From a virus, in IMG/VR virus record IMGVR_UViG_2784132095_000001: 64,000 bases of DNA. One strand, given 5' to 3'. This document shows positions 2,357 to 39,345 of the stretch, in pieces. Within the stretch, counting starts at the first letter, position 1. Every line of letters begins with the position of its first letter. The position numbers and the translations under genes were made by a program. The notes below the pieces were generated by a model that saw nothing but the letters and a program-made list of their open reading frames with translations, was not told the DNA's origin and made no database searches.

Positions 2357-2409
2357 TTTCTAAAAAAAGAAAGATTTTTGTTGACAACATTCTCAATTTA
2401 GAATATAGT
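2357..2409 (+). promoter_or_regulatory. PR-like sigma70 promoter with two operator palindromes
   Basis: TTGACA (2381-2386)-N17-TATAGT (2404-2409). Palindromes TTTCT-N6-AGAAA (2357-2372) and ATTCT-N6-AGAAT (2389-2404). Confidence 0.8.
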
Positions 2410-3115: not shown

Positions 3116-3895
3116 ATGAAATTCGAGATTAAATCACGATGGGACGGCTCGGTACTATTTTCGATTGAAACGGAATCATGGAGGCTGGCTGTTGAGGCGG
3201 CCCTTAAAGCAAGGGCGAACCTCCGCTATGCGGACCTCCGCTCTGCGAACCTCCGCTATGCGGACCTCCGCTATGCGAACCTCAGCTATGCGAACCTCCG
3301 CTCTGCGGACCTCAGCTCTGCGGACCTCAGCTATGCGGACCTCCGCTCTGCGGACCTCAGCTCTGCGGACCTCAGCTATGCGGACCTCAGCTCTGCGGAC
3401 CTCAGCTCTGCGGACCTCCGCTCTGCGGACCTCAGCTCTGCGGACCTCAGCTCTGCGGACCTCAGCTCTGCGGACCTCAGCTCTGCGGACCTCAGCTATG
3501 CGAAAAACCTTTCCCCGTTTCTTTGTACTCCTCTTTTGATGTTGTTGGATCAACCCGGAAAGATTAGGGCCTACAAACTCGTTAATGCCGATGGTGAGGG
3601 GCCATACAACGGCGGGATCAAATACGAGATGGACGGTGAATATTCAGAGAAAAAAGCGAACACAGATCCGAACAAGCATTGCGGAGCCGGGATTAATCTT
3701 GCCACGCTCGATTGGTGCATGAAGGAATGGAGAGAAGGGTACAAGATTCTAATAGCCGAATTTACAGCAAAAGATATCGCCGCGATTCCGACCGGAACAG
3801 ACGGGAAGTTCCGATGTAAGAAAGTCAAAATTGTCGGAGAAGTGGATTTAAAAAAGATCGGTCTGGTTAAAGAAGCGGAAAAGGTGCGGCCATGA
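3116..3895 (+). CDS. Pentapeptide-repeat protein with C-terminal globular domain
   Basis: 19 consecutive A(D/N)L(R/S)(S/Y) units. Confidence 0.92.
   Translation: MKFEIKSRWDGSVLFSIETESWRLAVEAALKARANLRYADLRSANLRYADLRYANLSYANLRSADLSSADLSYADLRSADLSSADLSYADLSSADLSSADLRSADLSSADLSSADLSSADLSSADLSYAKNLSPFLCTPLLMLLDQPGKIRAYKLVNADGEGPYNGGIKYEMDGEYSEKKANTDPNKHCGAGINLATLDWCMKEWREGYKILIAEFTAKDIAAIPTGTDGKFRCKKVKIVGEVDLKKIGLVKEAEKVRP
3215..3499 (+). repeat. 15-bp tandem repeat, 19 copies
   Basis: Unit GCG[A/G]ACCTC[A/C]GCT[A/C]T; only three positions vary. Confidence 0.95.
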
Positions 3896-4158
3896 AGAAA
3901 TTGACAATCGAGGAGGCGGCTGAACTAACTGACGGGCTTTATAAACCCGCCACTCTTCGGTACTTCATCAAGCGCAAGATTCTTCGCCGGATCACCGTTC
4001 CTGGGGGTGAGGGGGAGTTTATAAAAGTTGGCACCGGGAAGTCTTCCCCGGTCCGGATCATCGAAGAACGGTTTCGAATTTGGCTGCACAAGAGAACGTA
4101 TCCGGGGGATGAAGCCGATCGGCGCGGTGTGCCGATGGCAGCGGTGGGACGAAGATGA
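3892..4158 (+). CDS. Excisionase-like/MerR-type HTH DNA-binding protein
   Basis: MKKLTIEEAAELT...KPATLRYFIKRK; ATGA coupling to the upstream gene. Confidence 0.65.
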   Translation: MKKLTIEEAAELTDGLYKPATLRYFIKRKILRRITVPGGEGEFIKVGTGKSSPVRIIEERFRIWLHKRTYPGDEADRRGVPMAAVGRR

Positions 4159-4163
4159 AAAGT

Positions 4164-4336
4164 GTTTTGCGGATTGAGGGGGGAGATAACCACATGGACC
4201 CGTCATCCAGATGTGGAAACCTGAACCTCATAGGGCTACCTGGCTCCCACAGTGAGGTCAACAATAGCCCAGGGACACGAGAAGGGAAGGGGAGTGACGA
4301 CCTCGCCCGACTCGTGCCCCGCTCAATCCGCAAAAC
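4164..4336 (+). ncRNA. Candidate structured non-coding RNA (~173 nt)
   Basis: Perfect 15-bp closing stem GTTTTGCGGATTGAG/CTCAATCCGCAAAAC enclosing CCACAT/ATGTGG, ACCTCA/TGAGGT, GGGCTA/TAGCCC and CACGAG/CTCGTG helices. Confidence 0.6.
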
Positions 4337-4357
4337 CTTCTTTCTGTGGAAATAACC

Positions 4358-4993
4358 ATGACCCTCTACGAAGAGCTCGAAGTGGAAAAAACAGCGACCC
4401 CGGAAGAGATCAAAAAAGCCTATCGGAAGAAGTCGAAGCAGGTTCATCCGGATCATAACCCGGACGATCCGAAGGCGGCGGAGAAGTTTGGCGAGTTAAC
4501 AAAAGCCTACGACATCCTCATTGATGAAGAGAAGCGGAAGCGGTACGACGCCGGCGAAGATCCGGACGCCATGAGGAACATGAAGACGCCGCGGGATATG
4601 GCGGTTCATGCGGTGATGAACCTCTTCTCTCAGGTGATCGAGCAGGTAGACGAGAATCACACCGACATTTTCAGCGTGATGAAAGAGAGGGTCCATAACA
4701 ACATTTCGAAATTCAAGGGTGAGATTAAGAGAGGGGAAAATCAGATCAGAAAATACCAATCTGCCATGAAGCGAATTTCCCACAAGAAGAAATCCCAGGA
4801 GAACATTTTTATTCAGTCGCTCGAAGCGCAGATCCGGAGCGTTGAGGGTGGGAAGGCTCAATTCGAAGAGCAGATCAAGATTGCCGAAATCGCCCTGACG
4901 ATCATCGATGACTACAAGTATCAGGTGGATGAGGATCTGCCGACCTATGGGCAGCCCATGAACCGCTTCACCATCGGAGGAATCTGGCGATGA
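4358..4993 (+). CDS. J-domain (DnaJ-like) protein
   Basis: [35 protein letters not shown]...[17 protein letters not shown] motif, followed by a coiled coil. Confidence 0.9.
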
Positions 4994-5235
4994 AAAAACA
5001 ACCGTTCTTCCTAGGTGCTCATGTAACACGGTACCAGCTTCGGATGTCTCCGATTGAGATATTCGCTTTCTGGCTGGCGGTCGTGTTCATCTTCACCGGT
5101 ATCTCTCTGATGGTCTGGCCGGTCATGCGGACCTACTTTGTTTTTCTCGCGGGGATGATTGCAGGAATGTTGTTGATGATCGGGATCGATTGGTTGATGG
5201 AAAAACTTGAAGACGGTCCGGGAGGAAATTCATGA
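4990..5235 (+). CDS. Small membrane protein
   Basis: Two hydrophobic segments; overlapping start/stop coupling. Confidence 0.65.
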
Positions 5236-5822
5236 TTCCACAATTCGAACAAGCGGTGTCTTACTTCAAGGCCGTCATTCTCGATGATCTTGGGGTTTAC
5301 TGTTGGGTCGCCGGCGGAGCGGTGCGGGATTACTTCTCGATCGGAAGAACAACTTCGGACATTGACGTGTTTTTCCCGGATCATCTCGCTTTTGATATCG
5401 CCGTCTTGGTCATGAAGGCGAAGGCCGGGAATCCCACATTCGATGATGGCCGGGTGATGAATTTTAACTTTAAGGGCCACACGATTCAGCTTATCTCTTC
5501 TCATTACTTCGAAGATCCCGCAAAAACGATTGAAGCCTTCGATTTTACCGTCGCGTGTGCGGCGGTCGATCACGAGAAGGTCTACCACCATCCAACTTTC
5601 TTTATGGATTTGGCTTCCAAAAAACTGGTGATCAACAAGCTTCCCTATCCCCTCTCCACCCTGCAACGGGTTCAGAAGTACGTCAAGAAGGGATACACCA
5701 TTTGCAATGGTGGGCTTTTGGAATTATCGAGGGCGATCCAGGTGGTGAACCTTCAAGATCCATCTCAGAATGTTTTCGAGTTTTATCCGAATGGGACACC
5801 TAAATTTGTGAGGTTTGATTGA
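5232..5822 (+). CDS. Head-only class II (CCA/poly(A) polymerase-like) nucleotidyltransferase
   Basis: VAGGAVRD...SDIDVF (DxD) and FDFT motifs; only 196 aa. Confidence 0.8.
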   Translation: MIPQFEQAVSYFKAVILDDLGVYCWVAGGAVRDYFSIGRTTSDIDVFFPDHLAFDIAVLVMKAKAGNPTFDDGRVMNFNFKGHTIQLISSHYFEDPAKTIEAFDFTVACAAVDHEKVYHHPTFFMDLASKKLVINKLPYPLSTLQRVQKYVKKGYTICNGGLLELSRAIQVVNLQDPSQNVFEFYPNGTPKFVRFD

Positions 5823-26840: not shown

Positions 26841-26904
26841 GGGTACCCCCACAAAGGCCCCTTGAATGTCCGGTCGCATGATCGGTGTTCAAGGGGCCTT
26901 TTTT
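26841..26904 (+). promoter_or_regulatory. Conserved leader + terminator hairpin, copy 1
   Basis: GGGTACCCCCACAAA-GGCCCCTTGAA...TTCAAGGGGCC-TTTTTT. Confidence 0.8.
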
Positions 26905-38415: not shown

Positions 38416-39345
38416 ATGTTTCCAGCAGCGACAGGAATGCCCAACTACTCTCCCACAGGGACGAGTAAATTTATCCCGGAGATTTGGTCCGGAAAGCTCG
38501 TTGTGAAGTTCTACGACGCCTGCGTTCTCGCCGATATCAGCAACACCGATTACGAAGGCGAGATCAAAAAGCATGGGGATACCGTAAACATCCGGACCAT
38601 TCCCAACATGACCATCCGGCCCTATAAGAAGGGTCAGATTCTCCAGACCGAGCGGCCTGAGAGCCCGGCGCTCTCCCTGCTGATCGACAAGGGGCAGTAT
38701 TTCGCCATTGTCATCGACAACGTGGACAAGTATCAGAGCGATATCCCTCTGATGGATCGGTGGGCGGAAGACGCTTCCGAGCAGATGAAAATCGTGGTCG
38801 ATACCGATGTGCTCGGAAACATCTATGTCGACGTCCATGCGTCGAACAAGGGGTTAACGGCCGGGAGAAAGTCCGCGAGCTTTAACCTGGGCGCCACCGG
38901 ATCTCCTGTCACCCTCACCAAGGTCAACATCGTCGATTATTTGGTCGACATGGGGACCGTGCTCGATGAGCAGAATATCCCTGAGCAGGGTCGGTTTGTC
39001 ATTCTTCCGGCCTGGGCGATCGGAATGCTCAAGAAGTCCGATATCCGGGATGCTTCTCTGACCGGGGACACCATCTCTCCGATGCGAAACGGTAAGGTCG
39101 GCATGGTCGACCGCTTCACGGTTTACCTCTCGAACAACCTGAGCACCGCCTCCGATGGTGGATCGACCTGCTACAACATCCTCTTCGGGCACAAACTGGC
39201 GACCACCTTCGCGGCTCAGATGACTGAGATGGACACCTTGAAAGTGGAATCGACCTTCGGGCAGCTCGTTCGAGGCCTGAAAGTCTACGGCTACAAGGTG
39301 GTCAAACCGGAAGCCCTGGGCCATTTCTACGCGAAGAAGGGATAG
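38416..39345 (+). CDS. Major capsid protein
   Basis: FIPEIWSGKL...NTDYEGEIKKHGDTVNI...VRGLKVYGYKVVKPEAL; strong SD; followed by a hairpin. Confidence 0.88.
   Translation: MFPAATGMPNYSPTGTSKFIPEIWSGKLVVKFYDACVLADISNTDYEGEIKKHGDTVNIRTIPNMTIRPYKKGQILQTERPESPALSLLIDKGQYFAIVIDNVDKYQSDIPLMDRWAEDASEQMKIVVDTDVLGNIYVDVHASNKGLTAGRKSASFNLGATGSPVTLTKVNIVDYLVDMGTVLDEQNIPEQGRFVILPAWAIGMLKKSDIRDASLTGDTISPMRNGKVGMVDRFTVYLSNNLSTASDGGSTCYNILFGHKLATTFAAQMTEMDTLKVESTFGQLVRGLKVYGYKVVKPEALGHFYAKKG

Follow-up and report, generated by a model that had tools for sequence, protein, structure and literature searches.

We found that a segment of about 190 bases in the early operon of a prophage is a discrete cassette that moved recently, as one block, between two phage lineages, and that the place it occupies is a hypervariable slot of that operon. 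According to structure prediction, the RNA of this segment can adopt a compact fold, and two knots are predicted within it. Accessory structured RNAs are a known kind of component of phage operons, and the fold of this one matches no catalogued family. The DNA analysed, called the window below, is a stretch of 64,000 nt (IMG/VR record IMGVR_UViG_2784132095_000001) that takes in almost the whole prophage. The host genome has 5.17 Mb in 22 contigs with 56% GC and encodes RNase III, and the right one of the two direct repeats that border the prophage overlaps a tRNA-Lys(CTT) gene. A CRISPR spacer of the host (G000:C9, ~71190) matches a related phage (L018:6526-6560) at 34 of 35 positions, so these phages share this kind of host; the resident prophage has no match to the spacer. 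The coordinates of the features are collected in Table 1.

Table 1. Features of the cassette, the predicted fold and the surrounding operon (positions in the window unless a host contig is given)
Feature	Position	Strand	Remarks
Direct repeats attL/attR	C1:760206 and C1:825150 (host genome G000)		border the ~65-kb prophage
Sigma-70-like rightward early promoter	2381-2409	+	11/12 match; flanked by the CI-like repressor gene and the first gene of the rightward operon
88-aa gene	3892-4158	+	left border of the slot; helix-turn-helix-like by eye
Exchanged cassette	4155-4345	+	5' end at the start codon that overlaps the stop of the preceding gene, 3' end at the U-rich tail behind the closing stem
66-codon open frame	4155-4355	+	overlaps the upstream stop; ends 2 nt before the next start
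Closing stem, 5' arm	4164-4183	+	15 bp, one unpaired G, 4 bp; pair probabilities 0.95-1.0
Hairpin 1	4190-4216	+	5+4 bp, 2-nt bulge, 7-nt loop 4199-4205
Predicted kissing strand (new here)	4201-4205	+	complementary to 4295-4299 in the loop of hairpin 3
Predicted pseudoknot core	4225-4270	+	4225-30/4253-58 and 4233-38/4265-70, interleaved
Inner parts of the pseudoknot core		+	3-bp stem 4240-42/4250-52 with 7-nt loop; 6-nt A-rich junction 4259-64
Hairpin 3	4276-4316	+	6+3+4 bp, purine internal loops, 8-nt loop 4293-4300
Closing stem, 3' arm	4317-4336	+	weak extension 4160-62/4337-39 predicted
J-domain (DnaJ) gene	4358-4993	+	right border of the slot; PF00226, E 2.8e-24
Nucleotidyltransferase-like gene	5232-5822		PHROG 1614; two genes downstream of the J-domain gene

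The element (4164-4336) sits in the rightward early operon, where a CI-like repressor gene on the minus strand is followed by a strong promoter and then by a chain of genes coupled via overlapping stop and start codons. This promoter is the likely source of the transcript that contains the element. The 88-aa protein on the left had no match in Pfam, PHROG or NCBIfam and was not found among 400 genomes of the phylum. At 3116-3895 the window encodes a pentapeptide-repeat protein with a DUF7666-like C-terminal part, which is missing at this place in several relatives. Downstream, the close counterpart of the nucleotidyltransferase-like gene in L018 and L019 (88.7% DNA identity over the block for L018) was called Gad2 (PF26128). 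Gad2 is an anti-Gabija protein (PMC13670838), and this is a possible function of the gene in question.

Relatives of the flanking proteins were drawn from Logan contigs, and one of the loci recovered, L056, carries a second copy of the element. Between 4155 and 4345 the two phages are identical at 189 of 191 positions (171 of 173 within the element itself), whereas the sequence upstream is ~71% identical and identity ends abruptly at 4346. The upstream gene and the J-domain gene of L056 are 70.8% and 75.6% identical to those of the window, but 96-99% identical to those of L021 and L057, two phages in which the slot is empty, and the trees of both genes separate the two lineages with a support of 1.0. 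Outside the element the best identity of L056 and the window over 150 nt is 87%. A near-identical copy amid diverged flanks therefore identifies a recently exchanged cassette. The block common to both phages begins a few codons before the end of the upstream gene and extends through 4345, and the final ~15 bases of the upstream gene in L056 resemble the lineage of the window, which suggests a crossover there. The only two differences between the copies, at 4309-4310, are two swapped purines in the 2x2 internal loop of hairpin 3; as the recent transfer explains the identity of the copies, this identity is no evidence of selection on the fold.

The sequence-only reading had considered an attenuator or processing element for the J-domain gene. 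In L056 the next gene after the element is not the J-domain gene but a 108-aa gene, for which no relative was found, and the J-domain gene is present without the element in eight other related loci. These findings do not support that proposal; as a different gene follows the element in L056, the element is not a regulator of the J-domain gene.

The contents of the slot between the 88-aa gene and the J-domain gene vary widely among the related phages. Apart from the two phages with an empty slot and L058, where a read-through fusion was called, the slot holds a 160-aa gene in L018 and L019, an unrelated 65-aa gene in L020, a 322-aa RNA ligase (PF09414) in L022 and L023 (L022:2864-3832, L023:320-1288) and an HNH-AP2 nuclease in L060. 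The ligase could possibly serve counter-defence by RNA repair and the nuclease is probably selfish; with the latter among its cargos, the slot is not purely a place of counter-defence. Free-standing genes of HNH or HNH-AP2 nucleases were also seen in the early region (L060:1595-2149 and 2406-2903; L056:3805-4314), one being in the slot, and such nucleases could drive the exchange of neighbouring cassettes.

Every helix named in the sequence-only reading is present where it had been placed. Its perfect 15-bp arms of the closing stem (4164-4178/4322-4336) stand, but the extent given for the stem was too short: 4317-4320 pair with 4180-4183 (pair probability 0.96-0.97), which makes 15+4 = 19 bp. 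No other perfect inverted repeat of the window with arms within 400 nt is as long as this one of 15 bp, and by our own arithmetic ~0.02 such repeats are expected by chance. Other perfect inverted repeats are one of 13 bp within the start of the repressor gene (2232-2303) and one of 14 bp at 26853-26901. The first hairpin extends further than had been described, via 4195-98/4206-09 around its loop. The third hairpin, described earlier as one helix with strands of 10 and 9 nt, consists instead of 4276-81/4311-16 plus two inner helices, and its 3' strand passes into the closing stem without a break.

The region 4164-4336 folds with -80.5 kcal/mol (z -6.0) and none of 200 shuffles was as stable, while the inner 133 nt without the closing stem reached a z of only -1.6. 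The reverse strand folds about equally well (z -5.5), and so does single-stranded DNA, because 60 of the 61 pairs are Watson-Crick pairs and there is almost no G-U. The + strand is favoured by the promoter, by the coupling of the frame, by the A-rich unpaired bases (24 A and 4 U among 51 on this strand) and by the right flank, the site of any minus-strand promoter, which differs between the copies in the window and in L056.

Within the closing stem, two interleaved 6-bp helices had been proposed, with a 3-bp stem directly before the 3' strand of the first (P1), and this complementarity is indeed there. The pattern, which was defined after seeing the sequence, occurred in 0.06% of 5000 dinucleotide shuffles and is unique in the window on both strands. 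The nested minimum-energy fold pairs 4255-58 with 4238-41, not with 4225-30, so that the pseudoknot competes with a plain bulged hairpin. The second predicted knot is a loop-loop contact between hairpins 1 and 3 (4201-05/4295-99) with five Watson-Crick pairs; its chance is 0.5-2% under three null models, for a test that was also defined after seeing the sequence. Comparing the window with L056, the sole homologue, none of the 61 pairs varies, and with only these two near-identical copies both knots remain predictions.

The proposal that the element is an unclassified phage ncRNA gained support from its non-random fold, from its exchange as a discrete cassette between lineages and from the comparison with Rfam. 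No covariance model of Rfam 15 gave a match overlapping 4164-4336, even at E <= 10, and the whole window gave no match at the gathering score of any model (hammerhead, twister, pistol, hatchet, riboswitches, C4, HEARO, EAR and others). BLAST of the element against phages, plasmids, its own genome, 60 relatives and 400 genomes of the class returned chance matches only. The same was true of a single-sequence covariance model run on 150 genomes of the phylum, 40 related genomes and all fetched loci, and of pattern scans of IMG/VR, metagenomes and GTDB contigs; protein-anchored scans of IMG/VR found distant J domains only. Across all searched collections the element is thus very rare, with one other copy (L056), and these searches have low power for divergent copies.

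Several further candidates were rejected. A 24-nt stretch of a genome of the same class (L113:342-365) matches the 3' part of the element at 23 positions, but it was seen once only, next to a gene for an IS630-like transposase, and its pairing is different; among 400 genomes of the class a match of this kind is expected by chance. Two short words in the element, which we took to be like those of a permuted Mn riboswitch, have no support from Rfam, and the host has no such riboswitch. Elsewhere in the prophage there is no complement of more than 12 nt to the element, and a candidate antisense target at ~3930 is absent in L056. A programmed frameshift into the J-domain gene was also discarded: a -1 shift at the near-slippery site 4214-20 reaches a stop at 4253.

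Our preferred reading, which we hold tentatively, is that the cassette is an accessory 'gene' with a folded RNA as its product, which would be excised at the closing stem and act in trans, perhaps as a decoy. It is likely that the + strand is transcribed within the early mRNA and that its fold consists of a closing stem, two hairpins and a central pseudoknot. The open frame is probably a translational relay, kept open so that ribosomes can pass from the stop of the preceding gene to the start that follows; this would avoid polarity and make the insertion non-polar. We are close to evenly divided on the following step, in which the 19-bp closing stem would insulate the domain from its variable neighbours and host RNase III would cut there, freeing a stable RNA of ~140-170 nt. 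It is more doubtful whether this RNA, its loops tied in tertiary contacts, might work as a shape and not as antisense, most plausibly by serving a host protein, e.g. a defence enzyme, as ligand or decoy. The block itself would spread via ordinary phage recombination at short homologies of gene borders and not by a mobility of its own. The Gad2-like gene nearby, the RNA ligase as an alternative cargo and the precedents for phage RNA decoys weakly suggest a role in counter-defence, which on this analysis is possible but not probable. Against the reading as an accessory RNA count the almost pure Watson-Crick pairing and the equal folding of both strands, which also fit a structure of the DNA or of the minus strand, the modest stability of the interior alone, and the outcome of the look for a target, in which neither a likeness to the two CRISPR repeats of the host nor a retron reverse transcriptase in the host was found.

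The cassette could instead be a gene for a small protein (66-73 aa) like other cargos of the slot, its structure being incidental or stabilizing the mRNA. The frame has gene-like borders in both phages, as the frame of L056 (73 codons) shows the same overlap with the upstream stop and the same 2 nt before the next start despite a different 3' sequence. Such a frame is open in only 12% of shuffles, before the match of frames is counted, and the joint chance with the two frame matches is roughly 1% by our own arithmetic. The predicted peptide speaks against a protein: the 66-aa frame had no homologue among 1.84 billion representatives (three matches, to repeat proteins only), its Atlas recognition was 1270 with a best score of 0.75, and its codon score of -0.133 ranks at the 0.5th percentile among segments of real genes read in frame and equals the off-frame median, although the cargo of L019, a real gene, also scores low (-0.105). 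The sole change between the peptides of the two copies, Arg to Gln, is non-synonymous, and the C-termini differ. Conservation of this ORF as a protein would count against an RNA, and the ORF is not independently conserved; we regard a protein gene as distinctly improbable. A cis-acting element of the early transcript (a put/EAR-type antiterminator, a stabiliser or a ribosome brake) that tunes downstream expression would fit the position in the middle of the operon, on the transcribed strand and in the same slot in both phages, and ribosomes in the open frame would melt the fold and could switch between the pseudoknot and the nested fold. However, most relatives with the same operon lack the element, so that read-through does not depend on it, the two copies are followed by different genes, the ribosome-binding site of the next gene lies outside the fold, there is no terminator-like site at the element and the -1 shift soon meets a stop, which together make this explanation unlikely. 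Alternatively, the cassette could be a passenger that is selfish or has no function, such as a DNA insert of the fold-back or MITE-like type or what is left of a larger element, tolerated for being non-polar and hitch-hiking by recombination. The perfect terminal inverted repeats, the near absence of G-U, the equal folding of both strands and as DNA, the great rarity and the interior that is not significantly stable alone agree with this. Yet, contrary to what a MITE or other non-autonomous transposon would show, the target site is not duplicated and the arms do not recur in the host genome, both known copies are at the same junction, and the two independent complementarities of tertiary type inside are unexpected for a MITE, so that we consider a passenger doubtful.

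The arrangement of the central helices also calls for a comparison with theta (minimal HDV-like) ribozymes (Kienbeck et al. 2024, PMC10879173). Like these, the element has P1, a short J1/2, P2, a 3-bp P3 with a loop of 7-8 nt, P1', a junction and P2', and it shares with them a 6-bp P1, the lack of P4 and the origin from a phage. The P1/P2 pseudoknot with a 3-bp P3 directly before the 3' strand of P1 is found at the level of sequence complementarity, and the resemblance is one of topology only, as had been held before: all features of the catalytic core fail. HDV-like ribozymes require a G at +1, paired with U or C, that closes P1 (PMC6326823), but P1 of the element starts with A4225 (or with A4224 opposite C4259). 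The L3 consensus (U first, two pyrimidines for P1.1, CG for the U.G reverse wobble) is missing, as the loop 4243-49 starts with G, and the position of G25 is occupied by C. P1.1, for which there is no GG, and L4/P4 with a J4/2 that begins with the catalytic C are missing as well: six nt without G (4259-64) lie between P1' and P2', where theta examples have 2 + 5-7 + 4-5 nt (11 or more). A strict HDV descriptor did not match at the element, and no hammerhead core was found in the window or in the seven related loci scanned. Unlike theta ribozymes, the element has one extra base between P2 and P3, is embedded in a larger closed domain, has no tRNA near it and lies inside an open frame, while theta ribozymes are almost never intragenic. 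A loose match to the HDV descriptor at 38851-38908 of the window, with an L3-like loop and GG, is inside a long ORF, needs G-U pairs and is probably due to chance. Another alternative is that the element cleaves itself, as a ribozyme whose class has yet to be described, and thereby severs the polycistronic early RNA; it would then use the HDV-like P1/P2/P3 scaffold with a different active site and a loop-loop brace. In its favour are the HDV-like order and lengths of the helices, unique in the window, the C-and-A-rich junction before the 3' strand of P2, the hammerheads of prophages, which border individual genes or blocks of genes and cleave the native transcripts (PMC3088659), and the natural HDV variants that accept non-standard P1.1 pairs (PMC13635239). 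Set against the missing core and the open frame across the element, these leave it only a small chance. It seems to us even less probable that the cassette founds a new ribozyme class, in which an HDV-shaped pseudoknot with a different active site is clamped by the loop-loop contact within a closed four-helix domain, and that it cleaves the early transcript (or cleaves and religates it) and passes from phage to phage in the manner of an accessory gene.

The search for anti-defence proteins exploits the accessory slots of phage early operons, and here one of these slots holds an RNA-like cassette. Disguised as a small ORF, such a cassette would be skipped by gene callers or filed as a hypothetical protein. 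Should the accessory RNA be a decoy, the few known RNA counter-defences would gain a further example; if self-cleavage is true, it represents a new ribozyme class. The case rests on two near-identical copies, and nature provides comparisons in which one phage has the cassette and a nearly identical one lacks it, namely L056 versus L057 and L021.

Finally, we compared the element with other named systems. Retron msr-msd RNAs have an a1/a2 closing inverted repeat around hairpins and a partner reverse transcriptase. The element is like them in its size (~170 nt), its long a1/a2-like closing inverted repeat, its internal hairpins and the folding of both strands, but its third hairpin is short and purine-looped; there is no reverse transcriptase beside the element or in the prophage, and the only three of the host (C4, C7, C9) are of the group II intron type and below the retron cut-off, so that a retron was rejected. 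The order of hairpin, pseudoknot and hairpin recalls P2-P3-P7-P9 of a group I intron; such an intron was rejected too, as the element leaves no space for P4-P6 or P8 and the two copies have different bases at position 4346. The early operons of temperate phages are known to yield processed small RNAs (P4 CI, P1/P7 c4). Similarly to these, the element is a structured RNA inside an early transcript that overlaps or abuts a short ORF, but it has no Rfam match and no target sites in the operon, is accessory and not core and is twice the size. As for phage RNA decoys, BLAST of the element against the host genome showed no likeness to either of its two CRISPR repeats, which excluded a Racr or CRISPR-repeat mimic. 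In contrast to pseudo-ToxI, the element is a single unit without tandem pseudoknot repeats of 35-55 nt; a search for ToxN in the host was empty, with the control likewise unmatched everywhere. The element differs from the decoys in having no repeat units, no likeness to host CRISPR repeats, a much larger size and a more knotted fold, and the analogy is functional only. In this sense rAcrVIA1, a phage RNA decoy (PMC13288109), Racrs and pseudo-ToxI are precedents: like them, the element would be an accessory phage RNA that acts by its shape, and it has a Gad2-like gene in its vicinity.
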